Positions 7,997-61,885 of a stretch of DNA of 64,000 nt are shown here, piece after piece (the stretch's first letter is position 1; every line of letters starts with the position of its first letter). Under the pieces are notes generated by a model. The model ran no database searches, was not told the origin of the DNA, and saw nothing but the letters and a program-made list of their open reading frames with translations. Source of the DNA: a virus (lineage: Duplodnaviria > Caudoviricetes); IMG/VR virus record IMGVR_UViG_3300033073_001027, positions 1 to 64,000 of that record, one strand, 5' to 3'. The position numbers and the translations under genes are program-made.

Positions 7997-10162
7997 TTAG
8001 AAATTAATTTGTGCTCTAATCTTTTCAACCTGATCAGCAGTTCTAATAATCTTAACTCTATTGTCAATATACAGGATTTCTCCCGATCTATTATCAATTT
8101 CTGGAGGTGTAACATTTAATACTTGCCCAGAAGAGATGCCTTGCGTCACATTAGTCATACCATTGCCAACACTAATACGAGGAATAATTGGTAGCAAGTG
8201 AATATAATCTACAGTTCCATTTAAATCAGCGTCTTCTTTCTGAACGACAATAAATCTTCCGCCATCATCAGTTTCAATAATATCATCATAATCAAATAAG
8301 TCAGGATTATTTATACCGACAACGTAACAGCAATTAGCAGTATCAGTAGTAACAAGATTTGTAGAATTAAATTGTCTTGGATTAATTACAATACCAAGTT
8401 GTCTAAAATCATTATTCAAGAAACTATCGGAGGTTTCGTTTGTCAGAGGAACCGTCAACGATAGAGTTGTAGCAAATAATTCTTTCTGTGGATTTGATCC
8501 ATGCCCACCGAACGGTGACAATATTGCTCTAAACTTGGCACCAGTTCCAGGAGAAAATGGATTACTATTCACAACAGATATTTCTGCGAACGAATATTCC
8601 GACCCAGGATTAGTAATAGTCACGCCTGTGACAACACCATCAGTAAGAGTAATAACTGCTTCGGCGTCCTGTCCGTCACCCTCAATAACAAGATATGCAT
8701 CGCCCTCGATATAATCGAGTCCGCCGTCAAGAATTTCTATTCTGTCGATTGTTCCTGGGATTGCAGCAGCTTCTACCTTTTCTTGTGGAATACCACCCTC
8801 GACGCTCCCAAGAATGGCAGTAGCAGTTGCTTCTGCTGACGGATTGTTTCCATTTACAGGAACGAATCTAACATTTGCAAAAGTAAACGCAGAACCTGGA
8901 GCATCTACTGTAATAGAACTGACGCTATCTCCAGTCAAGGATGCTGTCGCTCTTGCACCAGAATATCCAGTTCCTCCGTTTGTGACGTTAATTTCTGAGA
9001 TAGTTCCACCAGAAATGACTGCAGATGCAGTAGCACCAGTTCCACCGCCGCCAGAAAGATAAACCTTTGTTCCTTCGAATGTAAGACTATGCGAGGAACC
9101 TTCACCATATGAGGTCAAGTCAACATATGTTTCTGCTTCTAAATTATCTTGACTTGTTGCAAGAGAAACAGTATCTACGTCAATTACTGCCAGATAATAT
9201 GGTCTAGAATTTGTCAGTCCACCAATTGTGGAACCACCGCCATTCGAGTATACGACAATATCACCATTGGTAAATCCATGCGATTCAATCAAAATAGTAT
9301 TAGCAGTCAAAGAAACGCCAGAAGAAGAAGAACCATCGAATGCCTTGGCATTTTCTTCTCTGTAACCAGAACCGCCATTAGTAACAATAACAGAATGAAC
9401 AACATCTTGCTCAGTTTCAGGATCTGTTTGGCAAATAGAAAATGCTTCAGCGCCAGAACCTGTTGTGCTGTCAATAATAACTGTTGGGCAAGTCTGCCCA
9501 TCGCCTTGGATTATTACATATGGAGCATCTGTATATCCAGAACCACCTGAAGTAACTTGAATACGATCAATAAATCCATTAACATCAAATTGCGGATCGC
9601 CAAGTCCTGCCATTTTACGAACAGGAATGTGCGTCGAGGTCAAAAACTTGCTTTGGTCTGCGGATTCTACGCGAAATAGAAACTTCCAAACATACCCATC
9701 AGAAGTTTCGAATGCAACTGTGTCTGTTCCAGTTGGTTTAACCACACTTGGGGAATTGTTATTATTTCCAAGACATTTGTAAACATTAAATTCGTCAGTA
9801 ATAACAAAAAAATCAGCATCAGCAAGATTGCTGACACCGCTATATGCAGTAATTAAATTGCCATTGTCATCTTCTTGACCATATGAATCGTCATACTGGT
9901 CATATACTGTACCCAATGACCAATTACGTCTAGTTGCCATCAAACAAACATCTGATGCTGCAATACGCTTAACAAACATCATATTTCTATGCGCAGTGTT
10001 GTTGTAGGATCCAGAGTCAATTGGTTGCTCTGGATCCTGCTCATCAACCCAATTCAGGGTTCTGGCGATATAGAAATAGTAGTAGTCATGCTCGCTGTAA
10101 ATATCGCGATAGATGCTTCTTGCTATCTCAGTTCGCCCCTGCGATCTTAGAAGAAGTGGCAT
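7997..10162 (-). CDS. gp8: Baseplate wedge subunit gp8-like, with inserted GGSGY repeat domains
   Basis: YDQYDD...FFVITDEFNVYKCLGNN...KPTG...TSDGYVWKFLF, GGHGSNP and DFRQLGIVINP motifs. Confidence 0.85.
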   Translation of the reverse strand: MPLLLRSQGRTEIARSIYRDIYSEHDYYYFYIARTLNWVDEQDPEQPIDSGSYNNTAHRNMMFVKRIAASDVCLMATRRNWSLGTVYDQYDDSYGQEDDNGNLITAYSGVSNLADADFFVITDEFNVYKCLGNNNNSPSVVKPTGTDTVAFETSDGYVWKFLFRVESADQSKFLTSTHIPVRKMAGLGDPQFDVNGFIDRIQVTSGGSGYTDAPYVIIQGDGQTCPTVIIDSTTGSGAEAFSICQTDPETEQDVVHSVIVTNGGSGYREENAKAFDGSSSSGVSLTANTILIESHGFTNGDIVVYSNGGGSTIGGLTNSRPYYLAVIDVDTVSLATSQDNLEAETYVDLTSYGEGSSHSLTFEGTKVYLSGGGGTGATASAVISGGTISEINVTNGGTGYSGARATASLTGDSVSSITVDAPGSAFTFANVRFVPVNGNNPSAEATATAILGSVEGGIPQEKVEAAAIPGTIDRIEILDGGLDYIEGDAYLVIEGDGQDAEAVITLTDGVVTGVTITNPGSEYSFAEISVVNSNPFSPGTGAKFRAILSPFGGHGSNPQKELFATTLSLTVPLTNETSDSFLNNDFRQLGIVINPRQFNSTNLVTTDTANCCYVVGINNPDLFDYDDIIETDDGGRFIVVQKEDADLNGTVDYIHLLPIIPRISVGNGMTNVTQGISSGQVLNVTPPEIDNRSGEILYIDNRVKIIRTADQVEKIRAQINF

Positions 10163-34175: not shown

Positions 34176-34457
34176 TTACTCGTCAAAAGGTAACTCTTGT
34201 ATATTGTCTAGGATTGCGTGCAGATGTTTTTTTGCACCATCACTAATTATACTCGATGTAGTAGCGAAGTCAATGCATTTCTTGACAAAAATCGGATCCA
34301 ATCCAACAAGATCCTCGGCAAAATACTTTTTTTCTGTATCTGGATATGTGTTCAATGCAACCAATACCAATTCCACTTCATAGTCCGTATATAATGTTAT
34401 ACGGTATCTGCGTGGAAAAGGCAATAGTTTATCAGGAAATTTTAATATCTCTGCCAT
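34176..34457 (-). CDS. Hypothetical protein
   Basis: ORF track; start reassigned to MAEILKFP, preceded by an AATAAATA late-promoter variant. Confidence 0.6.
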   Translation of the reverse strand: MAEILKFPDKLLPFPRRYRITLYTDYEVELVLVALNTYPDTEKKYFAEDLVGLDPIFVKKCIDFATTSSIISDGAKKHLHAILDNIQELPFDE

Positions 34458-35565
34458 CAATATATTTATTAGTTTGAAGAGTTTTGATGATAGTTTCCAA
34501 ACCATCCGACTCTTTTATTGCGTTGGAATATTCTAACCCAATAGAATAATCATAAAAGTCGCGATCTAGTGTATCGAGCAATTTAGTGGAGGTAAACTCT
34601 TCTGGTTGAATCACTGCACAGAAATGAGAGAAGTACTCAGAATTTTCAGAATTCTCTTGCATCTGCGGGACAATTATCTGCGGCGTATTTGATTCCAAAC
34701 ATTTTGCAATTGTTCCTATTCCACCATGATTTACTACTGCTCTTGATTGCGGGAACAGTAAATGATGTGCTAGTGTTTCGTTACAAACAAAAACATTTTC
34801 ATGTTCAACTTTGACATCTCCGAGTACGATCGAACGAATACCAGAAGATGCAACTTCTATAATATAATCTAAAAAGTTTTTTGGTTTTGTTTCGCCGCCA
34901 ATACCATAACCAAGAGTGTATACTACTGGAGGGGTTCCTGCGTCGATAAAATTTTGCATATCAATCGGCAATCCAGATTGATCATAATGTTGCATAAAAT
35001 TACCATAAACCAAATTTTCATGATCACCAGAATCATAAATCTTTTTTGGAAATAATGTAATCTTCAAATTATCATTCCGAAGAGGAGATAAACTTGTATA
35101 TGAATCTTTCGGCAATCCGAGCGCATACCTTCTCTCATTGAGACATTCCAACCAATATGAATTTAAGAATGCATCGCTGCTAGGATTATTTTTGATATAT
35201 TTTGGAGAAATTAGTAAGTCTACTTTTGGGATACAATAATAATCAGAAATTATTTTTGCCATTGGACATAGAGGGTGAGAAATAATCAAATCAATCCCAC
35301 TACAAATTTCTATCATCTTTGGAAGAAAAGACATAGAATGATTCATCAACAAATCTAATATCGGAAAAATAAAATCTTCATTTTTGCTGAAATCAACATC
35401 CATAACATTAACATATGGAATAGCATGAAAGTCAGCAACATCTTTTAAGTTATTTTCTGGGAGAACAAATATTACCTCATGACCAAGATCTTGTAATTTT
35501 TTACCAAGAGGAATAAATGGACTAATATCTCCATAGGAACCACCTGTATGTAGTAAAATCTTCAT
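34432..35565 (-). CDS. GT-B glycosyltransferase (GT1/GT28-like, NDP-sugar dependent)
   Basis: GSYGDISPFIPLGKKLQDLGHEV N-terminal motif; HHLLFP...VNHGGIGT...PQIIVP sugar-nucleotide-binding motif. Confidence 0.88.
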   Translation of the reverse strand: MKILLHTGGSYGDISPFIPLGKKLQDLGHEVIFVLPENNLKDVADFHAIPYVNVMDVDFSKNEDFIFPILDLLMNHSMSFLPKMIEICSGIDLIISHPLCPMAKIISDYYCIPKVDLLISPKYIKNNPSSDAFLNSYWLECLNERRYALGLPKDSYTSLSPLRNDNLKITLFPKKIYDSGDHENLVYGNFMQHYDQSGLPIDMQNFIDAGTPPVVYTLGYGIGGETKPKNFLDYIIEVASSGIRSIVLGDVKVEHENVFVCNETLAHHLLFPQSRAVVNHGGIGTIAKCLESNTPQIIVPQMQENSENSEYFSHFCAVIQPEEFTSTKLLDTLDRDFYDYSIGLEYSNAIKESDGLETIIKTLQTNKYIDGRDIKIS

Positions 35566-36992
35566 GAAAATACTCTAACACCATATGTCTGTTCGAACTC
35601 TCTGGCATCCTTTGAATTATTTACCATTGGTTTACCCTTTACGTTCAAACTTGTATTAAGTAGTATCGGGCACCCTGTTTCTTGGTACCATTGTCTGAGT
35701 AAAGTATAGAGACCAGGATGTTGCTCAAATGTCACAGTCTGGACACGACTTGTCCCATCAGCATGAACAATAGCAGGAAACTCATCAGGATATTTACATC
35801 TTGAAGTATACTGCATATACGGGGAGTCTTCCCATGACATTTCAAAGTAGTCTCTTGCATGTTCTGCCAGAATGACTGGAGCGAACGGACGAAATTTTTG
35901 TCGTTGTTTGATCTCATTAACTCTATCCTTGATGTCATGACCACGAGGATCGGCAAGTAAACTACGATTACCCAATGCTCTAGGTCCGAACTCTGCGCGA
36001 CCATTAGCAACCCCAACTATACCTGTTTTGTGTAGTTCTGTCAATAGTTTTTTGATTGGATATTCGTCGCCCATATCTGCACCAAGATATGGACCCTTCC
36101 AATTCAACTTTTGTCGATTATTAGCAGCGATAGCGCCAAGCGAACTTCCCGCATCACCAGGATTTGGCATAATCCAAACGTTCTTAAAATACTTTTTTGT
36201 GATATGATTGGCACTACAGTTTAGCGCACAACCACCCATCAGAACAAGATTGTTGCTATTTGTTAATTCAGTAGCAAGAATTACAAGTTTCTCAAACTCT
36301 TCCTCGTAAACTTTTTGAGTTGCTGATGCGACGCTATATACGTCCAAGACGTCATCAGTATGGCGCCACGCACGGCATCCGCGATGGAGGTTCTCGTGTT
36401 CCCAAAGACCTCGGACATCCGTGTAATATTTTTCTGAATCTCCGTATGCTGCCATTCCCATTAGAATGTATTCGTCTTCATTGGGTTTTAGTCCAATTCT
36501 ATCTGTCATAGCAGAATAGAACAGTCCCAGTGACTGCGGATACTTCATACTCCACAACTTCTTCATCTTCGACCCTCGGCACGACCAAATAGAAGCAGTA
36601 TCTAATTCGCCTATGGCATCAATAACCAGAACAGTTGCCTCTACAAATCGAGAAGTGTAAAATCCTGCAGCAGCGTGAGATTCGTGATGGTTGGCATATT
36701 CAAATACAGCATCTATACCGAAGTTCTTCTTCATATATCGAGAAGGGAAGAAATGTTGAAATCCTTGCCCTGCATAAAGTCTGCGGATTGTTCTCAGATA
36801 CGGTTTCTCGTACCAATGTATTTTTGTCGGAACACCATATTTCATTGCTTCGGTGATAATCTGATTGTTCAACCAAGGATCGTTCTTGATACCACTAAAA
36901 CGCTCTGCGTGACTTGCAAATAGAATTTCACTTCCATCAACTACAGCAATAGATGCATCATGTGCGCCAGCTGAAATACCCCATTCAATCAT
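35562..36992 (-). CDS. Carbamoyltransferase, NodU/CmcH family
   Basis: HDASIA...ERFS..KND, HHESHAA, DAIGE, EYILMGMAAYG, GGCALNC, EFGPRALGNRSLLADP, RPFAP, DGTSRVQTV and LLNTSLN motifs. Confidence 0.95.
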   Translation of the reverse strand: MIEWGISAGAHDASIAVVDGSEILFASHAERFSGIKNDPWLNNQIITEAMKYGVPTKIHWYEKPYLRTIRRLYAGQGFQHFFPSRYMKKNFGIDAVFEYANHHESHAAAGFYTSRFVEATVLVIDAIGELDTASIWSCRGSKMKKLWSMKYPQSLGLFYSAMTDRIGLKPNEDEYILMGMAAYGDSEKYYTDVRGLWEHENLHRGCRAWRHTDDVLDVYSVASATQKVYEEEFEKLVILATELTNSNNLVLMGGCALNCSANHITKKYFKNVWIMPNPGDAGSSLGAIAANNRQKLNWKGPYLGADMGDEYPIKKLLTELHKTGIVGVANGRAEFGPRALGNRSLLADPRGHDIKDRVNEIKQRQKFRPFAPVILAEHARDYFEMSWEDSPYMQYTSRCKYPDEFPAIVHADGTSRVQTVTFEQHPGLYTLLRQWYQETGCPILLNTSLNVKGKPMVNNSKDAREFEQTYGVRVFS

Positions 36993-37089
36993 AAATGAAA
37001 GGATCCATTTTTCTAATTGCCTTTAACCTCTGTTTAAGTTTCTTCTTATTTTGAAAATACTTAATAATCTTGAAAAATATTTTGATCAT
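36985..37089 (-). CDS. 34-aa peptide with C-terminal DPFIYD motif
   Basis: Read manually: MIKIFFKIIKYFQNKKKLKQRLKAIRKMDPFIYD*. It has a GGAG RBS, an ATGA overlap with the upstream rSAM stop, and overlaps the carbamoyltransferase start. Confidence 0.75.
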   Translation of the reverse strand: MIKIFFKIIKYFQNKKKLKQRLKAIRKMDPFIYD

Positions 37090-38195
37090 GTATATTCTCC
37101 GTATACTCTTAGAAGTTCTGGCCACAAGTCATATGATCTTGTTGATTTATTTAACATTTTATACTCAACTCCAGCAGTCCAAGAGTTAAAATTAACAAAA
37201 CTAGATTCTTTATCAATATTCAATAAATTTTTCCTAAATGACTGCAACGATTCAACGTTCGGGTTTCCAGAATATTTTTCCAAACATTCGTCAAGTTGCT
37301 GCAGTGCAATTGTTTTTATTTCTGGATGTTGATCGAATATGCTGAGAGAAGCAGGAGTAGTTAAACATTGCCAATATACATTAGCAAAATATTCAGAATT
37401 TAACACATAATCGCAATAGTCAATCAGACGCAAAGAAGAAAACAAAAAATATACTGGGTGCGCATTTAATTTTTTGCCAGTTTGTTCATATATTATTCTG
37501 AGATTTTCCTCGAATACTTTCCATGATGCGCCATGTCGAACATACTCGAATCTATCGCCTATTGTTTCAAAACTAACACCCCAGGTAACATTTGGATTTG
37601 AGATCATTTTTTGCGCAAGTAAATTTGTTTTGACATCATTTGTCAAATTAGTAAGAACATAATACTGTTTATCGGGCAGTAAATCCAACAATTTCAAATT
37701 TTGTTTTTGAAGTAGAGGTTCACCGCCCAATAAATTGATATTCTCTATAGTAGATAGATTAGTCGTAATAAAATCAAAAACATTAATTTCTGCAGCATCT
37801 TTGTTCGGAGTAGATTGTTCTTCTTTACTCAATGATGCCCATTTCGAACTAAACTGCGAGTTACAATAAACGCATGAAAGATTACATGTATTAGTCCATC
37901 GAACATCAAAATTAGTCAGCGTAAATTCTTCGGGTGTGTTTACCTTAATCACTGGAGGTTTTCGTTGAGAATTTCCGCCAACTGCTTCTATCTTTTTACA
38001 ATACGAACAATTTTTTTCATGCCATTCACCCTTAAACATCGCTGCTCGAATATCATTGGATTTTTCATTGTTTAATATTTGTTCTAGCGGTTCTTCGTTT
38101 ATGTTACCAAGAGTTACATCTGATGCACAGCAAAATTTCACTTCTCCATTTGTATTAAGAAAAAAAGAATCAAATGGATAAGAACACAAAGGCAT
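37086..38195 (-). CDS. Radical SAM protein with N-terminal twitch/SPASM-like domain (copy 8)
   Basis: CNLSCVYC, GGEPLL; N-terminal CSYPF...FCC...CSYC. Confidence 0.92.
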   Translation of the reverse strand: MPLCSYPFDSFFLNTNGEVKFCCASDVTLGNINEEPLEQILNNEKSNDIRAAMFKGEWHEKNCSYCKKIEAVGGNSQRKPPVIKVNTPEEFTLTNFDVRWTNTCNLSCVYCNSQFSSKWASLSKEEQSTPNKDAAEINVFDFITTNLSTIENINLLGGEPLLQKQNLKLLDLLPDKQYYVLTNLTNDVKTNLLAQKMISNPNVTWGVSFETIGDRFEYVRHGASWKVFEENLRIIYEQTGKKLNAHPVYFLFSSLRLIDYCDYVLNSEYFANVYWQCLTTPASLSIFDQHPEIKTIALQQLDECLEKYSGNPNVESLQSFRKNLLNIDKESSFVNFNSWTAGVEYKMLNKSTRSYDLWPELLRVYGEYT

Positions 38196-39049
38196 TAAAA
38201 TCTCTCCAACAATTCACCATAAATTGTTTCGGATAATTCTACGTGCTTATCATATTTCGCATGCCCAAATCCGCAAACTGGATAACTCTCGGTGGTAAAA
38301 TATTGTGCATTTTTCAAACGTGATTGAAAATTCTCTGCTGTATTAATCATAGTTTCAGAAATATGTCCATCTATTTGCCCCTGCCCATACCAAGGAATCA
38401 ACGCATCCCAAGAAGTGGAAATTGTAAACCACACAATTCTGTTATTGTGCCGCGAGGATAATAGGTCCAAATATTTTAATTCTTGATAATACTTACATAA
38501 CATATTCTTAGGATTCGCATATTGTAAAACATATTCCTCGTAAGATTTCTTATTCGGCCAGTTCCACCATTGAGCATTAAAATGACCATAGATTATATTG
38601 TGTTCTTCGCCAGAATCATCAATCCAAAATTGTCTATTGGGAGCAGGCGCTCCAATTACAACAAGAGATTTATCTGTAATATTACCTGACAGCAAATCTT
38701 CTTCTAATTTGTGTATCGAATATGCCAAACTAGATCCACCAAGACCACGATTAACCCAAGGAACATTAAATTTATCAGACAACCAGCGAGGCCATGCAAA
38801 TTGTTCTTGGTATTCTCGAACTTTCTGTGCCACATGTTTTGGATCAGGGTTGATAAACCAAGCAGGATTACTACAATATTCTGGGGTAAAATATTTTGCA
38901 TAAAAATCACCAGTTCTGTGATTTGTATATTCTCGTTTAATTCTATCTACTTCTTGCTCTGACAACTTGTCTATAACAACATGATCCATCAGTTCCTCAC
39001 CAGAAGTAAAACTGCAACCATATGCAAAAATCTTATCAATTTGTATCAT
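38195..39049 (-). CDS. SGNH/GDSL-fold hydrolase- or acyltransferase-like protein
   Basis: Block I-like FAYGCSFTSG, block II-like NRGLGGSS, C-terminal GHA...H. Confidence 0.6.
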   Translation of the reverse strand: MIQIDKIFAYGCSFTSGEELMDHVVIDKLSEQEVDRIKREYTNHRTGDFYAKYFTPEYCSNPAWFINPDPKHVAQKVREYQEQFAWPRWLSDKFNVPWVNRGLGGSSLAYSIHKLEEDLLSGNITDKSLVVIGAPAPNRQFWIDDSGEEHNIIYGHFNAQWWNWPNKKSYEEYVLQYANPKNMLCKYYQELKYLDLLSSRHNNRIVWFTISTSWDALIPWYGQGQIDGHISETMINTAENFQSRLKNAQYFTTESYPVCGFGHAKYDKHVELSETIYGELLERF

Positions 39050-39058
39050 TAATTCCTC

Positions 39059-40246
39059 TTAAATTAAATTTGCTTCTCGATATGACAGTAGAATATTACC
39101 AAATTCAGGAAAAATATCGAAATAATTCTCGTTTCGATATTGATCGTGCAGTTTTATCTTTCGCATCATACTAAGATAATCTGACGGATTATCAATTTTC
39201 AAAAATTCCACCAACGAAGGAAGTTGTTCGTGTAGAGATTGATTTTTCTGTAATTTTTTTATAACATGTTCTTTTATTTCCATGGGCAAATTTTTCGCCG
39301 ACAATACGTCAGGAACATGCACTAAATTCAAATAGACTCCTATTCCCAAAGAGTTAAATACCTCCAAATACTCTGGGACGTAATATATATTAAGAGAACT
39401 GATAGTCAGGCAAATTTGAACATCATTCGGTCCATATCTTTCAAGGAACCTTTGTAAATTTTCAGACACCTTGCCCCAAGAAGCAGGATGTCGCATATAT
39501 TCAAATTGTTTACCTACTCCATCTATGCTAAACATAAAATCAACACGCATAAATTCGTTCCAGATTTCGTTCATTGCGAATTCAGGAAAAACAGTTCCAT
39601 TGGTATTATAATGGATTCTTTGTTTTTTACTATAACCAGCAGAAATACTTTTTCGTAATAGACTATAATGTTGCTCGTTAATTAGCGGTTCTCCGCCATA
39701 TATTTCAAATAATTCAATTTGCGGAAGAAGCGTCTCGAGATCATTCCAAAACTCAGAATTATATAATGGCCACTGTAATACTTTTCTGTAGTTTCCATCA
39801 GAGGAAAGGTTTGAATAATTTTGTAAAAACCCACCAAGACCAAGATCAATTGTTTCTCGAATCCATTTACTAGAACTTGTTGCCGTACAAGTCCTGCATT
39901 TTAAATTACAAGTATTACCTAACTTGACATCTAAAAATTTCAACTCAGGAGTAGTATGAACGCCCCATCTTTTATTTTCTCTCTGCCTCTTACTTTCTTT
40001 ACCGCATAACTCTTCTTCCCAACAAACACGACAACCACTTGGTTTCTCTCCATTTACCATGGATTCGCGCAACTCTTTAATTGAGTTTGAATTCCAAACT
40101 TCACTTAGAGTGTCAGAAGAAAGAGTAAATAATGAGTTATCGTCTCGCGTATAGAATTGTTGATTCAGACAACAGGGACTAACTAAACCATCTGCTCGAC
40201 TTTCTAAATGTATGAATGGTAGAACACAATAAGAATCACTGGTCAT
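39059..40246 (-). CDS. Radical SAM protein with N-terminal twitch domain (copy 7)
   Basis: CNLKCRTC, GGEPLI, YNTNGT, SIDG; N-terminal CVLPF...PCC...CRVC. Confidence 0.92.
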   Translation of the reverse strand: MTSDSYCVLPFIHLESRADGLVSPCCLNQQFYTRDDNSLFTLSSDTLSEVWNSNSIKELRESMVNGEKPSGCRVCWEEELCGKESKRQRENKRWGVHTTPELKFLDVKLGNTCNLKCRTCTATSSSKWIRETIDLGLGGFLQNYSNLSSDGNYRKVLQWPLYNSEFWNDLETLLPQIELFEIYGGEPLINEQHYSLLRKSISAGYSKKQRIHYNTNGTVFPEFAMNEIWNEFMRVDFMFSIDGVGKQFEYMRHPASWGKVSENLQRFLERYGPNDVQICLTISSLNIYYVPEYLEVFNSLGIGVYLNLVHVPDVLSAKNLPMEIKEHVIKKLQKNQSLHEQLPSLVEFLKIDNPSDYLSMMRKIKLHDQYRNENYFDIFPEFGNILLSYREANLI

Positions 40247-41447
40247 TAAATAAATCCTGGTATTCTGGAAACACTGAAAAGAAATCTTCGTTTCTAATTC
40301 TGTCGATAATTTGAATTTCTTCCAGCAATTCTGGTAATTGATGTGATCTATCTTCTGCCATCATATAATCTTTTAAATGATTAATTTGAGCAATACTGTT
40401 AGTTCTATCTGTCATACTTACATTACCGACCAAATAAGTTTCTTCAATAAATGAATTGAATCTAACCAGAAGTTCTTCTTTGTATTTTGCGGGCAATACC
40501 TGAATACGCATAAACTCTGGAGTTTGTATTGGATTTACCATCCATCCATTATCATCAATAAATCCAGAATTTATACAGTGTCGAATAAAATCTGTTAAAT
40601 CATATGCATTAAAAACGCCAACAGTCGCGCTGATTTTCAACGAAATGTGAGGACATTCTCGTTTGATTGCTCGAATATTATCTTCAATCTCAGACCAGAC
40701 AGTCCCCTTTCGCAAATACTCTCCTCGTTCTAGATAAGAATCTAGACTAGCCCAAACCTCAACAGTATCAAAATGATTCCAATATTCTAATACATTAATA
40801 TTTTTGTAATTCAATTTACTAAGATTAGTATTATATCTAAGGAGAACATTAGTTTTTTTGCGATCGATCAACTCTTGCAATATCATGTAATGTTGTTCCA
40901 TGATAAGAGGTTCTCCTCCTGCAAAATATATTTCTTCAACATAATCAAAATGTGGATATATTTGTTCCCAAAGATCAATCTTTTGCGGAGAAGAAAACCA
41001 ATCTTCACCCACCTTACCGAATCTTATTTTTGAATCAGAATGCCAACCTGAACTTAATTGCGGACCACAAGATCTACACTTAAAGTTACAAATATTACTG
41101 AAACGAAAATCCCAATAATACATTTTAAATTGATCTAACGACCCATCTTCATTTGTCATATTGAACAAATACTGTTTGTCTTTATTATATTCGTTCAATC
41201 TTGTTCGATTGCTGTTGCCCGAATGCTTTTCTTGTAAATAACAACGAGAACAGATCTCAGATTTTTCTCCGTTTAACATTTTTTTACGAAGAGTTTTCAT
41301 TTGGTCATTATTCCATATCTCTTCTAATGTGGAATCTGCGAGATTCCCAACATCAAGATGATGTGATGTCATACAACAAGGTAAAACCTTATTGTTTGGC
41401 AACGTATGTAAATGAATCCAAGGAGAAATACAAAGAGTATCAGACAT
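40236..41447 (-). CDS. Radical SAM protein with N-terminal twitch domain (copy 6)
   Basis: CNFKCRSC, AGGEPLI, YNTNL; start reassigned to MSDTLCISPW. Confidence 0.92.
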   Translation of the reverse strand: MSDTLCISPWIHLHTLPNNKVLPCCMTSHHLDVGNLADSTLEEIWNNDQMKTLRKKMLNGEKSEICSRCYLQEKHSGNSNRTRLNEYNKDKQYLFNMTNEDGSLDQFKMYYWDFRFSNICNFKCRSCGPQLSSGWHSDSKIRFGKVGEDWFSSPQKIDLWEQIYPHFDYVEEIYFAGGEPLIMEQHYMILQELIDRKKTNVLLRYNTNLSKLNYKNINVLEYWNHFDTVEVWASLDSYLERGEYLRKGTVWSEIEDNIRAIKRECPHISLKISATVGVFNAYDLTDFIRHCINSGFIDDNGWMVNPIQTPEFMRIQVLPAKYKEELLVRFNSFIEETYLVGNVSMTDRTNSIAQINHLKDYMMAEDRSHQLPELLEEIQIIDRIRNEDFFSVFPEYQDLFNDQ

Positions 41448-42642
41448 AGCGGGATAGTTCCTCGAACCACTCAGGAAATGTTTGTTGGAAATCTTCATTG
41501 CGCAAATTGTCAAGTTTTTTTGTAATATCACTAAATTCAGAAAGTAAATTCTGATCTTTATTCATTGTCAAAAAATTAGTTACTGTTTGCTCTACTCGTT
41601 TGCCTTGAACTCGGGAGATAATTATATCCTTCAATGTTCTTGGTAAAATTCTGGGATCATAATATGCAGGATCGGTGACAAAATTTATAGAAATATTATT
41701 TGTATACTTGCTGAAATAGTCTTCAAACTCAGATAGGTAAAAAATATTAAAAATAGAAACTGTTTGTAGGACACTATAACTCAAGTTGCTATGCGTTTCA
41801 CACAAATTACGAATCCAGTCAAACGTTTCCATTACTGTATTCCATTTAGAAGGCCAACGGATATACTTATTTCGATCATACAAGTCATCAATAGAGAGCA
41901 TAAATTGCACTCTTTTAAATTTTTTCCAAACATCATTATATTCTGTATTGATAATAGTAGTATTGGTAGAATAAATTATTTCGATGTGTTCAGAATCACC
42001 AGATTGAACTAACGACTCTAGAAAATGTTTATGTTTGTCTATCAACAAAGGTTCACCACCATTGATATACAGTAACCTTAATGATTTTCTATGCACAAAC
42101 AATTTATCCCAAAACTCAGAATCCAAACACCAATTAAACTTGTTTTTATCTATGTTGGTAGGAGAGAATCCATGAATTGCTTCAAATGCGGGAAACCATC
42201 TACTGCTAGAATAAATGTTACAAGATCTACAAGCAAGATTGCAATGATTGCCCAATCTTAATTCCACCATCTCATAATTTACATCGACGCTTCCGTCCGC
42301 AGAGGTATCTTTTATTGCGTCATCATAAGAGTATTCGAGTCTTTCCAATTCAAATTGCCGTTTACTTGTAATTCCAACACGTTCTTTATCGAAACACCGA
42401 CTGCACTGCACAGGTTCCTGCCCCGCCAACATTTCCAAGCGGACTTTTTTAAAAGATTCGCTATTCTGAATTGGTTTAAAATCGTATTGCGTATTGTTTA
42501 ACGTTCTATATTCAGGTTTCTCGAATTTATCAAATGCTTCTGACATTCTAGAATCGTGTCTTGCCTCACAACACAATGTAACTGAACCATGTGGATGCGT
42601 TGCAAGATGATTCCAGGGTAATGGACAAAATGTTTTACTCAT
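41440..42642 (-). CDS. Radical SAM protein with N-terminal twitch domain (copy 5)
   Basis: CNLACRSC, NGGEPLL; N-terminal CPLPW...LCC...CSRC. Confidence 0.92.
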   Translation of the reverse strand: MSKTFCPLPWNHLATHPHGSVTLCCEARHDSRMSEAFDKFEKPEYRTLNNTQYDFKPIQNSESFKKVRLEMLAGQEPVQCSRCFDKERVGITSKRQFELERLEYSYDDAIKDTSADGSVDVNYEMVELRLGNHCNLACRSCNIYSSSRWFPAFEAIHGFSPTNIDKNKFNWCLDSEFWDKLFVHRKSLRLLYINGGEPLLIDKHKHFLESLVQSGDSEHIEIIYSTNTTIINTEYNDVWKKFKRVQFMLSIDDLYDRNKYIRWPSKWNTVMETFDWIRNLCETHSNLSYSVLQTVSIFNIFYLSEFEDYFSKYTNNISINFVTDPAYYDPRILPRTLKDIIISRVQGKRVEQTVTNFLTMNKDQNLLSEFSDITKKLDNLRNEDFQQTFPEWFEELSRYV

Positions 42643-58544: not shown

Positions 58545-59663
58545 TCAGCGAATAATATCAATCTTTTCGATCGTTTCGGGCGACCAAATTTCTAAATTTT
58601 GACGCAAACGTCCGTCCGAACGCAAAGTTTCGTATCTTGAGGACGCTTTTTTCTTCCACCAGCGAATAATATTCTCAGAATAGTGCTTGTCAAAGTTTTC
58701 AGGACTCTTAATTAGCGTTTTATCGGTTCCGAGGATGTAATTTTTAGAATTTTCGTATCCGTAAGTCGAAATATAGAATCTTTTTTGCGTTGTAACGTCT
58801 TTGTTCGCCTGAATTGCGTTCGAAAACTCCTTCAAGAGTTCGGATTCGTAATATTTTAGCGAATTTTTGATAACTGCCATCATTTTGTTTTGCATTTTCA
58901 ACTTGTAGGAGGCAATTCCCTCTCTACCAAACAAAGGTTGACCATTATTCTTACTTGCAAACCAATTCATCGTCTCTTCCCAGAAATCATCCGAGAATGC
59001 AAGCACAAAATTGCTTACTGTATCACCAGTGTAGCGAATAAACGGTTTTAGTCCGTCGTATTGCGACGCTTGTTTGATATTTCCGTAAAGAGATGTTGTT
59101 TCAAAAAGACAAGTTTCCATGTCATATTTCTTATTGAACATTTCACGGAACTCATGAGAAGCGCAAAGAAGTGCACAAAGTTTACCACCAAGGTAGTTGA
59201 ACCCAAACGGTTGCGCAGGGACGATAATGAACCCCATAACTGCATGCTTGTTGAAAGATCGTAAATCTGGAACGCGACCAAACCAATCATTACGAGGTTT
59301 AGAATTAATGAGAGGACTGGCGACTCGACAAAATCCAACATATTTTCCTGTGTTCTTTTCTCTTACAATGAATTTAATCTCCTTCCCGAACGAATTCTCA
59401 TTACAGAAAGACGAGGTGATCTCGACCATCGTTGAAAATTCGCTCGGGGAGGGTTCGAAGATCTCAAACTCCATATCTTCAGGATGCATATCGAAATCCG
59501 AGAACAACATGTGTTCTGGTTCACAACCTGGAAGAGTTGCAGGAAGAGACTTCAAACGTTCTAACTTCTTCATGCGCATGTGGTCATCGATTCGACCATA
59601 GTTTGACATATAGTCAATGAATCGACGACCAATATATTCTGCGTCTTGTTTTTCTAATAGCAT
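58545..59663 (-). CDS. DUF4338/DruA-like protein
   Basis: KFIVREKNTGKYVG...SP.....PRNDWFG...IVPAQPFGFNYLGGKLCALL...ETTSLYG....SQYDGL...GDT motifs. Confidence 0.65.
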   Translation of the reverse strand: MLLEKQDAEYIGRRFIDYMSNYGRIDDHMRMKKLERLKSLPATLPGCEPEHMLFSDFDMHPEDMEFEIFEPSPSEFSTMVEITSSFCNENSFGKEIKFIVREKNTGKYVGFCRVASPLINSKPRNDWFGRVPDLRSFNKHAVMGFIIVPAQPFGFNYLGGKLCALLCASHEFREMFNKKYDMETCLFETTSLYGNIKQASQYDGLKPFIRYTGDTVSNFVLAFSDDFWEETMNWFASKNNGQPLFGREGIASYKLKMQNKMMAVIKNSLKYYESELLKEFSNAIQANKDVTTQKRFYISTYGYENSKNYILGTDKTLIKSPENFDKHYSENIIRWWKKKASSRYETLRSDGRLRQNLEIWSPETIEKIDIIR

Positions 59664-59699: not shown

Positions 59700-60509
59700 T
59701 TAAAAAAGATCTTCAAGTGAAGATTCAACCTTCTTATACTTCTTGTTTCGATCATGCAGTTTCAGTTCTGCATGCCCAGTCGACTCACGAATATACATCG
59801 TACACAGTTCTGGGAAAGTATCAGCAATAATCTTGACGCTGTCATAGACATACTGCTTGGTTCGGAAGTCTTGTAGTCCACCTTCTTCCTTATAGTATCG
59901 CGACTTAACAGTATAATCGTCTAGACGAACTAGAACACCATTCTTAATATACTGGCGAATAGAATATTCGTAGTCTTCACCGTGATTGGTAATACGAGCA
60001 AGGAAGTCATCATGCTCAACAATAACACCAAACATAGAAGCAATGATATAACAGATGTCGTTATAAACACGGTGCTTCATAAAATATGCATTAGCAGCAG
60101 CATAGATACCAAAAGTCTTAGCACCTACCTTGTCACATTCCTCGAAACCACGAAGAATAACTTCCTTCTCCAGATCCTCGACTCGACCCAACTTCTGTTC
60201 GCTAATCTTTACCTGAACTTCTTCAATGTCATCATCGAACATCATGAGACGAGTTCCCTCAGGATACCACTTCTCGATAAAATTGCGCTGAGCACCAATG
60301 GTCGGAACTCCACGAATAATCTCAATATCCTTTGCGTAAGGATTATCCTTCAACGCATTGGCATAGCGATCATATTCACCTTCTTCCTGATCATTAACAA
60401 AGATCTTAATCTTGGCAGGATCAATGTTATACGACTCAAGAACCTTCAACGTCTTATTCTGAACAGTCTTTTCACGATGATAAGACGGGATGGCAATACA
60501 ATAATCCAT
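59700..60509 (-). CDS. TET-associated (GREB1-like, GT-A) glycosyltransferase
   Basis: IAIPSYHR...RNFI...MFDDDI...GEDYEYSI...GGL motifs; coupled to the TET/JBP gene. Confidence 0.8.
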   Translation of the reverse strand: MDYCIAIPSYHREKTVQNKTLKVLESYNIDPAKIKIFVNDQEEGEYDRYANALKDNPYAKDIEIIRGVPTIGAQRNFIEKWYPEGTRLMMFDDDIEEVQVKISEQKLGRVEDLEKEVILRGFEECDKVGAKTFGIYAAANAYFMKHRVYNDICYIIASMFGVIVEHDDFLARITNHGEDYEYSIRQYIKNGVLVRLDDYTVKSRYYKEEGGLQDFRTKQYVYDSVKIIADTFPELCTMYIRESTGHAELKLHDRNKKYKKVESSLEDLF

Positions 60510-61885
60510 TAAAACAAATCCTCCAATGACGATGTTACTTCATATGCTTTAGGGTGATACTTCTCAACTGTTTCTCGACCCATCTTTTCTTCTAGGTAGT
60601 CATACCATTCTTGTTCATCCCACATTCCAGGCGATACGCCATTCCAAAGTGGGCGATAATACTTATGCTCGTGGTTGCTTCTGCGATCTACAACATACTG
60701 CTCCCGAGTTGTTTCGTATTCATACGATCCAAGTTCCAACATGTTCTCGCGGAAATAGCAAACGAGCGAGATACGTTCTGCTTCTGGATTATTTAGAACG
60801 ATCTCAGTGTTACCGTGCATAATTTCATGATTGTTAACAAGCAGCAGATCTCCTGGGCGAACGTTTACTGCGATACGATATTCAGGAAATACTAGATAAC
60901 CACCAGTATAATCCCCGCTACCGACAACAAGCAGATTGCTGAGACCATCGTCAAGATCGCCAGCATCTCTGTGGGCAGCAGTACGGAACGACTTGTTGAC
61001 TGTGATAGTTGTAAATACGGTTCCTGGGACAACAAACTTCTCATCGATTCTGTCGACTGCTGCTTTCTGATTCCCCCAACGCCATGGGAGTAGTTCCTTG
61101 AAACCTCTGTCAAGAGACTGTAGAAAAGGAAAGGAAAGGCGAAACTTATCAAAATTATCGCGAGTGTAACTAGTAGCACGCCCAAAAGGAATTCTCGGAT
61201 AACGATCGTACCACCCAGCAACACCTGAGAAAACCGACTTCGCATAGTTTGTGGTTGAGATCCACTTGGTGGCAACGATTTTTGCTGCATCTACAATTTC
61301 TTCCTTAGACTTTCCATCAAGACTATCGACCCACTTGTCGAACCATCCGAAATATTCTGGATATACCTTACATACCTGACTACGCAACCAGACTGCGCCA
61401 CGAGTTTCATCTGCATTCGAACGAGGCGCACCTGCATACTTAGCACGAATGCTTTCGATTGATACGTCTTCGATCAATCTTCCGCTAGTATCCATCAGGA
61501 AATCGAGCATCTCGAGTTCGTAATCAGTTACCCAGTCACGGCCGCCACGACCCTCTACGCCAAGAATCTCACCGCGAGGACCAGCAGCAAGTCCACGATT
61601 CTGCGATTCGGTTGCTGCTTCTCGCAGTCCGAGATATGCCTGATCCTGTTCTTCCTGAGTAAACCAGTTCTTACGAAACTTGAATGCGATTCGTCGCTCA
61701 TCAGTGCCAATATCGCAATCACTACAATCTTTATCGCATGAAACTTTTGTGTCAAGACCACAGTCTGCTTCCATATAGCAGTCGGTATCTTCATTGATCA
61801 CAACATCAAAGTGACTCTCATCTAGATATTGACCTAGTAGGTGTTCGCAGTCGAGTTTAGACTCTGCGACAATAACTTTTACCAT
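60509..61885 (-). CDS. TET/JBP-family 2-oxoglutarate/Fe(II) dioxygenase
   Basis: SGVAGWYDR, FTTITVNKSFRTAAHRDAGD (HxD), GDLLLVNNHEIMHGNT (distal His) and RISLVCYFRE (2OG-binding Arg). Confidence 0.88.
   Translation of the reverse strand: MVKVIVAESKLDCEHLLGQYLDESHFDVVINEDTDCYMEADCGLDTKVSCDKDCSDCDIGTDERRIAFKFRKNWFTQEEQDQAYLGLREAATESQNRGLAAGPRGEILGVEGRGGRDWVTDYELEMLDFLMDTSGRLIEDVSIESIRAKYAGAPRSNADETRGAVWLRSQVCKVYPEYFGWFDKWVDSLDGKSKEEIVDAAKIVATKWISTTNYAKSVFSGVAGWYDRYPRIPFGRATSYTRDNFDKFRLSFPFLQSLDRGFKELLPWRWGNQKAAVDRIDEKFVVPGTVFTTITVNKSFRTAAHRDAGDLDDGLSNLLVVGSGDYTGGYLVFPEYRIAVNVRPGDLLLVNNHEIMHGNTEIVLNNPEAERISLVCYFRENMLELGSYEYETTREQYVVDRRSNHEHKYYRPLWNGVSPGMWDEQEWYDYLEEKMGRETVEKYHPKAYEVTSSLEDLF

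Follow-up and report, generated by a model that had tools for sequence, protein, structure and literature searches.

A conserved DPFIY-ending phage microprotein, its highly probable carbamoyltransferase and SGNH-fold partners, and a possible tyrosine carbamoyl shuttle

In a 64,000-nucleotide stretch of DNA from a virus of the class Caudoviricetes (positions 1 to 64,000 of IMG/VR record IMGVR_UViG_3300033073_001027; hereafter the window), we investigated a 34-codon open reading frame (ORF; 37089-36985, minus strand) whose product, henceforth the microprotein, ends in DPFIYD. It lies directly upstream of the gene for a NodU/CmcH/TobZ-type carbamoyltransferase (CT; 35562-36992) and close to the gene for an SGNH-like protein (39049-38195). 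We are highly confident that the microprotein is a real gene product and a functional partner of both the CT and the SGNH-like protein: its C-terminal motif is conserved beside carbamoyltransferases in phages, and in bacteria the same motif occurs as a tail fused to SGNH enzymes encoded next to a CT. As to how it acts, the most likely mechanism, to which we assign a probability of roughly one half, would be a covalent shuttle in which a carbamoyl group passes from the CT to the tail tyrosine, from there to a serine of the SGNH enzyme and finally to an acceptor. Throughout, L and P numbers denote the loci and proteins compared and are labels within this analysis.

A short gene conserved beside carbamoyltransferases

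The microprotein gene runs from an ATG at 37089 to a TGA at 36985 on the minus strand and encodes 34 residues, beginning with MIKIFF and ending with RKMDPFIYD. Its ATG overlaps, as ATGA, the TGA of a radical S-adenosylmethionine (radical-SAM)/SPASM gene (38195-37086), a GGAG stands 7 nucleotides 5' of the ATG, and its stop codon lies 8 nucleotides within the CT ORF (start at 36992, sequence TATGATTGA), whose start codon overlaps the tyrosine and aspartate codons of the microprotein. An earlier note on this DNA, made from its letters alone, had described the ORF as unannotated, coupled to the CT gene and ending in PFIYD, and we could verify the coordinates, the overlaps and the GGAG alike. The encoded protein consists of a short (12-residue) amphipathic N-terminus, a Lys/Arg-rich middle that brings the net charge to +9, and the DPFIYD end; it has no transmembrane helix, the amphipathic start running directly into the Lys/Arg-rich segment.

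Since a 34-codon ORF is by itself no better than chance (the same 9 kb contain 101 ORFs of at least 25 amino acids), the reality of the gene was settled by conservation. Specifically, we examined 83 loci fetched with the CT (79 of them from IMG/VR) and found a short ORF ending in DP[FY]IY plus 1-2 residues in 64, in every case on the CT strand and never on the other (64 versus 0); most loci lacking it were truncated upstream. These loci yielded 34 distinct microproteins of 26-47 amino acids, many of them preceded by a Shine-Dalgarno-like sequence. Only D, P, I and Y were invariant in their alignment, and a conserved basic helix (KKRLxELRK) preceded the motif. Among 74 distinct DNA versions, every synonymous codon was in use at D/P/F/I/Y (two for Asp, four for Pro, two for Phe or Tyr, three for Ile and two for Tyr), which shows selection at the level of the protein. 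The motif was also retained where the ORF and the CT gene do not overlap (L002, L018, L070-L079 and the bacterial fusions described below), meaning that it is not a by-product of that overlap. We consequently gave low weight to a chance ORF, conservation being decisive.

The two closest annotated CT relatives have counterparts of the microprotein, both recognised by eye. In the marine virus AG-345-D19 the counterpart ends in DPYIYEE and overlaps the CT start. The CT of this virus (L003:5819-7211) is split into a 35-residue N-terminal ORF and a 446-residue ORF in another frame, probably through a frameshift error of the single-cell assembly. In the Ralstonia jumbo phage RsoM2USA (MG752970) the homologue (L002:4038-4148) has 36 residues, ends in DPFIYK and carries no GenBank annotation; it overlaps gene 201 at that gene's stop, gene 200 (DUF6071) comes next and gene 199 (CT) after it. 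Genes 201 and 203 of the same phage are further SGNH-like paralogues.

Beyond these loci, a profile search of 5.8 billion proteins returned 4490 clusters at E<=0.01 with lengths of 14-70 amino acids, none of which belongs to a Pfam family and of which every named one is called ‘hypothetical’. Pfam and PHROG scans of the microprotein itself gave no match, blastn of the region against phage records gave two short matches only, and a search of the ESM Atlas matched only unnamed clusters. Four proteins (P0129, P0135, P0140 and P0128) begin with the peptide and continue from DPFIY[KD] directly through Q or N into a longer protein; rather than true fusions, these seem to be gene calls extended past the microprotein stop, perhaps because the phages concerned have reassigned a stop codon.

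Partner enzymes and fused tails

The product of 35562-36992 (minus strand) qualifies as an O-carbamoyltransferase of the NodU/CmcH/TobZ class by virtue of both its domains and its similarity to solved enzymes. It matches Carbam_trans_N (5e-36, 125 bits) and Carbam_trans_C (3e-54, 184 bits), both above the cut-off and corresponding to a Kae1-like N-domain and a YrdC-like C-domain, as well as phrog_1601; solved carbamoyltransferases including 7xb6, NovN, GdmN and TobZ match it at about 1e-51 to 1e-36. The HHxSH motif and further motifs, invariant in the alignment, are retained.

The SGNH-like gene that the earlier note had placed one gene upstream is indeed located there (38195-39049, minus strand) and encodes a tail-less protein of 284 amino acids. 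It had no direct Pfam match at E<=1, DUF6071 (PF19547) included, which RsoM2USA gene 200 and bacterial relatives do match directly. Aligned as a family with the tailed bacterial DUF6071 proteins, however, it gave an hhalign result of 99.7% (E 1.3e-26, 223 columns). Conserved blocks among its relatives are GCS/GDS (containing Ser13), N-x-x-x-x-G-x-S-N and GHPxxxxH; Ser13, His263 and His269 were invariant in both family alignments, Gly105 was invariant in one and Asn100 nearly so. From these alignments the nucleophile is predicted to be Ser13 of the GCSFTSG block; no Asp completing a classical triad was identified. AlphaFold2 gave confident models of this protein (predicted local distance difference test score, pLDDT, 82; predicted template-modelling score, pTM, 0.84) and of a tailed DUF6071 protein (pLDDT 88, pTM 0.85), and Foldseek matched both models only to GDSL/SGNH esterases, CE2 esterases, TesA and the peptidoglycan O-acetyltransferase PatB (probability 1.00 for GDSL esterases, PatB and TesA with the model of the phage protein). 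As modelled, the product of 39049-38195 is thus an SGNH-fold protein and a divergent relative of DUF6071. Neither it nor the microprotein has a signal peptide or a transmembrane segment.

The SGNH family is very large (13,050 representatives at 50% identity, E<=1e-3). Three proteins of about 590 residues (P0207, P0231 and P0300) have a DUF6071-like SGNH domain preceded by an unidentified one of about 320 residues. When DUF6071 was sampled across Actinomycetota, only the centre genome of 401 carried it, meaning that the family is sporadic there, and no relatives of the SGNH protein of the L199-type contigs, which show no CT within 10 kb, were found in IMG/VR.

The most direct link between the microprotein and the SGNH enzymes came from bacteria. 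Scanning one genome per prokaryotic species with the CT profile gave 80 bacterial loci (including Streptomyces, Plantactinospora, Sorangium, Edaphobacter and many metagenome-assembled genomes), and in about half of them the motif adjoins the CT, where it is either encoded by a separate micro-ORF or forms the C-terminus of an SGNH protein. In the fused form, a basic linker of 30-80 residues leads to DP[FY][ILV]Y plus 0-1 residue at the SGNH C-terminus. We distinguished fusions to DUF6071 proteins (type A; L122, L144, L129, L136, L140 and L154) and to GDSL-like proteins (type B; L088, L089 and L118), and variant ends (DRFIYP, INFIYT and RDFLYP) widen the fused class. All 33 of 33 homologues of the Streptomyces protein P0146 were tailed, ending in an aromatic residue or Leu, then Ile, Val or Leu, then Tyr and 0-1 residue, and in their alignment the tail Tyr was invariant alongside the active-site Ser, Asn and His. 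Neither among the 120 top microproteins nor among these 33 tailed homologues was the Tyr ever replaced by Phe, while the adjacent aromatic position varied between F, Y, L and W. The microprotein profile aligned with the fused SGNH tails (hhalign 87.5%, E 3.6e-6), and 13 of the best 150 SGNH-family representatives were tailed. In phages, the search for longer proteins with the peptide profile, which gave few matches overall, contained one SGNH-plus-peptide fusion (P0123).

Because the same tail is found fused to SGNH enzymes, the gene-fusion argument suggests that the free phage microprotein and the SGNH enzyme work together. Co-occurrence points the same way: a tail or micro-ORF was present in 45 of the 60 bacterial CT loci with an SGNH gene and in 5 of the 20 without one, although these loci are phylogenetically non-independent. 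Together with the profile-level kinship of the SGNH protein in the window, the tail fusions beside CT genes strongly support the functional link between microprotein, CT and SGNH protein that had been proposed from the window alone. One locus (L075) holds two SGNH-plus-micro-ORF pairs and a single CT.

Sampling from the side of the peptide showed that the microprotein pairs with either partner, CT or SGNH, in surroundings of sugar chemistry. In some loci it adjoins a CT with no SGNH gene near. The most abundant variant (P0055; 187 blocks of the collection) is followed by two SGNH genes, with a third 8 kb further on. In an ENA metagenome scaffold (L202:1-20105; peptide at 10001-10105) it lies inside a 20-kb glycan operon comprising four glycosyltransferases, methyltransferases, a radical-SAM gene, 2-oxoglutarate oxygenases, RmlC, sugar epimerases and the three SGNH-like genes. 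Given that this lineage combines the peptide with three SGNH genes and no CT within 10 kb, the group carried is not necessarily carbamoyl in every case. In L202 the peptide gene is immediately preceded by genes of 412 and 452 residues that have no Pfam match and could encode an alternative loader.

The gene arrangements also bear on two other readings of the microprotein, both of which fit them poorly. The first is a cis-acting leader or arrest peptide, in which translation of the conserved C-terminus would control the overlapping CT gene; the tight overlap of 4 or 8 nucleotides that most phage loci show at the CT start, the lack of a clear Shine-Dalgarno sequence for the CT and the fused tails that end just before the CT in several bacterial loci are what one would expect of it. 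We nevertheless consider it very improbable, since the peptide also occurs upstream of SGNH genes, downstream of the CT, 3 kb away from it or on the opposite strand (L018, L070-79, L136-140 and L143-149), is found with no CT nearby at all, and is fused to the end of an enzyme downstream of the CT, which is unexpected for a leader peptide.

The second is a precursor of a ribosomally synthesised and post-translationally modified peptide (RiPP), altered by the neighbouring radical-SAM/SPASM enzymes, for instance at its C-terminal Tyr, a kind of modification exemplified by the mycofactocin and PQQ precursors. At least four radical-SAM/SPASM genes stand in the operon, one of them directly overlapping the micro-ORF start, and radical-SAM genes and the peptide are combined in many viral loci. 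Against this, the peptide accompanies CT and SGNH genes without detectable relatives of these radical-SAM genes in the phages L053-L064 and in most actinomycete loci, and the enzymes to which it is fused are SGNH and not radical-SAM enzymes. The obligate co-occurrence with a maturase that membership of a RiPP class entails thus fails in L053-L064 and in most bacterial loci, and we give this reading only a slim chance. The radical-SAM gene at 37086-38195 is operon context and no conserved partner of the microprotein, because many loci have the microprotein without such genes.

A possible carbamoyl shuttle and its acceptor

How might a free or fused tail connect the two enzymes? In the covalent shuttle, the CT would make carbamoyl-AMP from carbamoyl phosphate and ATP and carbamoylate the penultimate Tyr of the microprotein on its hydroxyl, much as HypF loads the Cys of HypE. 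The loaded tail would then swing to the DUF6071-type SGNH enzyme, whose GCS-block Ser would take the carbamoyl group from the aryl carbamate, by analogy with DltD and PatB, which receive their acyl groups from DltX and PatA tails of the FxYxxF type. Finally, the SGNH enzyme would hand the group to an acceptor that is bulky, probably bears a sugar and would be the product of the glycosyltransferase and radical-SAM enzymes encoded nearby; a glycan or the glycosylated 5-hydroxymethylcytosine (5hmC) DNA of this TET-encoding phage could play this part. Of this scheme we infer the covalent loading of the Tyr, the direction of transfer and the acceptor. At slightly under even odds, we would place the microprotein in a class of soluble protein-tyrosine carbamoyl carriers in which a NodU/HypF-type enzyme loads the C-terminal Tyr of either a free microprotein or an SGNH tail and the SGNH enzyme delivers the group to polymers or sugars. 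Chemically, a serine hydrolase could plausibly accept the group from an aryl carbamate.

Several observations weigh against such a shuttle. Carbamoyl-serine enzymes usually turn over slowly, as seen in carbamate inhibition. Some loci combine CT and SGNH genes without any tail (L040-42, L048-51 and 15 bacterial loci), and in the abundant P0055 lineage with its three SGNH genes there is no CT within 10 kb of the peptide. The microprotein lacks the final xxF of the published shuttle motif, its chain ending 0-2 residues past the Tyr. The AlphaFold2 model of the tailed DUF6071 protein does not show the tail docked in the SGNH active site: confidence was high for the domain, but the tail came out disordered (pLDDT <50 at residues 262-290), a disorder that, as a property of the model, neither supports nor contradicts docking there. 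Finally, known carbamoyltransferases do without a carrier. TobZ, GdmN and NovN act directly and partner-free on their final substrates, as does the phage 5hmC carbamoyltransferase (PMC8670742), and the GDSL-like protein of the saxitoxin cassette, SxtL, has been proposed to remove and not to add carbamoyl groups (PMC2885083).

The direct action of known carbamoyltransferases and the proposed hydrolase role of SxtL equally favour the main rival, a docking or adaptor tail, which we hold to be possible but rather unlikely. Here the DPFIY end would plug the pocket of the CT or of the SGNH protein non-covalently while the basic helix attaches to the second enzyme, to DNA or to an acidic polymer; a CT-SGNH complex would be assembled or gated, the Tyr would never be modified, and the SGNH protein would serve as an esterase or decarbamoylase elsewhere. 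The fusion and co-occurrence data show physical or functional linkage and not chemistry, and the conserved, strongly basic segment (net +9 in the microprotein, basic linkers in the fusions) has no obvious role in a pure shuttle. Docking does not, on the other hand, readily account for the strict invariance of the Tyr hydroxyl, with no Phe in any of the 120 microproteins or 33 tailed homologues, for a nucleophile placed, like those of HypE and DltX, at the very end of the chain, or for the FIY core, which is the sequence that PatB recognises in an acyl donor.

Returning to the covalent shuttle, its acceptor may be approached through the genetic setting. By ORF listing and Pfam, the genes for the microprotein, the CT, the SGNH-like protein, the radical-SAM enzymes and a glycosyltransferase form a single, tightly packed minus-strand operon, transcribed in the order three radical-SAM genes, SGNH-like gene, fourth radical-SAM gene, microprotein, CT and GT-B glycosyltransferase. 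The first three radical-SAM/SPASM paralogues (39059-42642, minus strand; Pfam) are operon context, and the fourth (37086-38195, minus strand) encodes a radical-SAM enzyme with an N-terminal SPASM-like domain (SPASM 1e-11, Radical_SAM 5e-9). In all four paralogues (37086-42642, minus strand) the Cys-rich SPASM-like domain precedes the radical-SAM core instead of trailing it. The last gene (34432-35565, minus strand), which overlaps the CT end, encodes a GT28/GT1-like glycosyltransferase of the GT-B type (Glyco_transf_28, EryCIII-like_C and Glyco_tran_28_C) and points to a sugar-containing acceptor.

Elsewhere in the window, a Tet_JBP dioxygenase gene (60509-61885, minus strand; family match) adjoins a gene for a TET-associated glycosyltransferase (TAGT; 59700-60509, minus strand); given these two genes side by side, the phage probably makes glycosylated 5hmC DNA. 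Beside the TAGT gene, the product of 58545-59663 (minus strand) matches the Druantia DruA family (PF14236, 1.8e-12), which is unusual for a phage. The 102-kb source record is that of a T4-type marine phage and resembles pelagimyophages (PMC7029224). Based on the operon glycosyltransferase, the glycan operons of related loci and the TET/TAGT genes, the acceptor would be a sugar on a polymer, possibly modified DNA.

Both the peptide (4490 clusters) and its SGNH partner (13,050 representatives) lack annotation almost entirely, and the peptide often escapes gene callers. Should the tail indeed be a covalent carrier, it would extend the tyrosine acyl shuttle from membrane systems with a membrane-bound O-acyltransferase (MBOAT) to soluble ones, from esters to carbamates, and to phages. 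It would also suggest a function for thousands of unnamed phage microproteins and for DUF6071, and by extension give SxtJ, SxtK and SxtL a testable role, and it could explain how carbamoyl groups are placed on bulky targets (glycans or glycosylated DNA) beyond the reach of a deep CT active site. Even if the tail only docks, the peptide marks a previously unrecognised, obligate partnership between CT and SGNH proteins.

Comparison with known carriers of acyl and carbamoyl groups

The saxitoxin cassette offers a genetic parallel, as it joins a CT (SxtI), SxtJ, SxtK and the GDSL-like SxtL, of which SxtJ and SxtK were still uncharacterised in a 2010 review (PMC2885083). As in the phage, a CT is accompanied by a tiny PFIY protein, and a GDSL/SGNH protein (SxtL) is included. 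The earlier note had held that small PFIY-type proteins accompany such carbamoyltransferases, and this proved to be the case for DUF5989 (PF19451): of the 31 loci sampled, 25 have a CT beside the family member, usually with SxtJ in between. Of 301 Bdellovibrionota genomes, 104 carry the family, whose true members reach scores of 35-91 bits. Its members have about 50 residues, a basic N-terminus, one transmembrane helix (about 20 hydrophobic residues) and an APF[IV]YT[LI]F end, which fits the published FxYxxF shuttle motif, and they sit in cell-envelope neighbourhoods (penicillin-binding proteins, Wzy_C, PMT_2).

The microprotein itself is not a member of DUF5989/SxtK. We found no match to the DUF5989 hidden Markov model at E<=1, nor at E<=10 across the 102-kb record (threshold 27 bits), and hhalign of the two profiles covered 6 columns with 17% probability, PFIY being all that is shared. 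Whereas DUF5989 proteins have a transmembrane helix and a PF[IV]YT[LI]F end and travel with the membrane protein SxtJ, the phage microprotein has none of these features, and SxtJ was not found in the phage record. In Bdellovibrionota (L164-L194), trios of CT, SxtJ and DUF5989 lie beside penicillin-binding-protein transpeptidases, O-antigen ligase and PMT_2 glycosyltransferases, which suggests a membrane-crossing carbamoyl shuttle for envelope polymers; in L164 a transmembrane-anchored SGNH-like gene also adjoins the trio.

The phage 5hmC carbamoyltransferase, which acts alone in vitro on single-stranded DNA and 5hmdCTP (Yang et al. 2021, PMC8670742), is likewise a phage-encoded CT of the TobZ type, and the phage studied here has Tet_JBP and TAGT genes, making modified DNA a possible target. 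By contrast, no peptide or SGNH partner has been reported for that enzyme.

In mechanism, the closest parallels are DltX/DltB/DltD and PatA/PatB. The FXYXXF tail of DltX or PatA carries an acyl group on its Tyr to an SGNH partner, which takes the group on a Ser, and PatB accepts the group from an O-acetylated FIYANF peptide and not from a scrambled version (PMC12148441), in agreement with the Dlt premise from which the earlier note had started. The likeness comprises a short F-I-Y motif at the C-terminus whose Tyr never varies, a tail that is either free (as in DltX) or fused (as in PatA), and an SGNH-fold partner with conserved Ser and His, PatB being among the structural matches. The systems differ in that Dlt/Pat is located at the membrane whereas the microprotein is soluble, basic and devoid of a transmembrane helix, and in that the tail is here fused to the SGNH enzyme and not to the loading enzyme. 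Neither an MBOAT nor an AT3 loader was found in the phage record. The likely loader would instead form carbamoyl-AMP, and the group carried would be a carbamate and not an ester.

For the loading step, the parallel is HypF, which combines YrdC and Kae1 domains of the same class as TobZ/NodU and, via carbamoyl-AMP, carbamoylates the C-terminal Cys of HypE in a PR(I/V)C motif (PMC4506123, PMC12130793). Both systems pair a YrdC/Kae1 enzyme, in the phage the putative loader, with a flexible tail carrying a nucleophile at its extreme C-terminus within Pro-x-Ile/Val-nucleophile, a tail that in HypE then serves its own or a partner enzyme; in the microprotein the nucleophile is last or next to last, and the adjacent CT belongs to the HypF superfamily. 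They differ in that the phage nucleophile would be a Tyr hydroxyl and not a Cys thiol, the partner is an SGNH enzyme and not a PurM-like dehydratase, and nothing in the phage setting relates to hydrogenases; PFIY resembles PRIC as a motif only. As a PurM-like domain is absent, we regard the relation to HypE as analogy and not membership.

Our literature search found no paper mentioning DUF5989 or DUF6071 and none combining a carbamoyltransferase, SGNH, radical SAM and phage. Relative to the published systems, the phage microprotein may add to the tyrosine-shuttle idea a new variant that is soluble and linked to carbamoyl groups, with comparative genomics as its support; if true, it would be the first O-carbamoyl-tyrosine shuttle, merging the logic of HypF-HypE with that of DltX-DltD.

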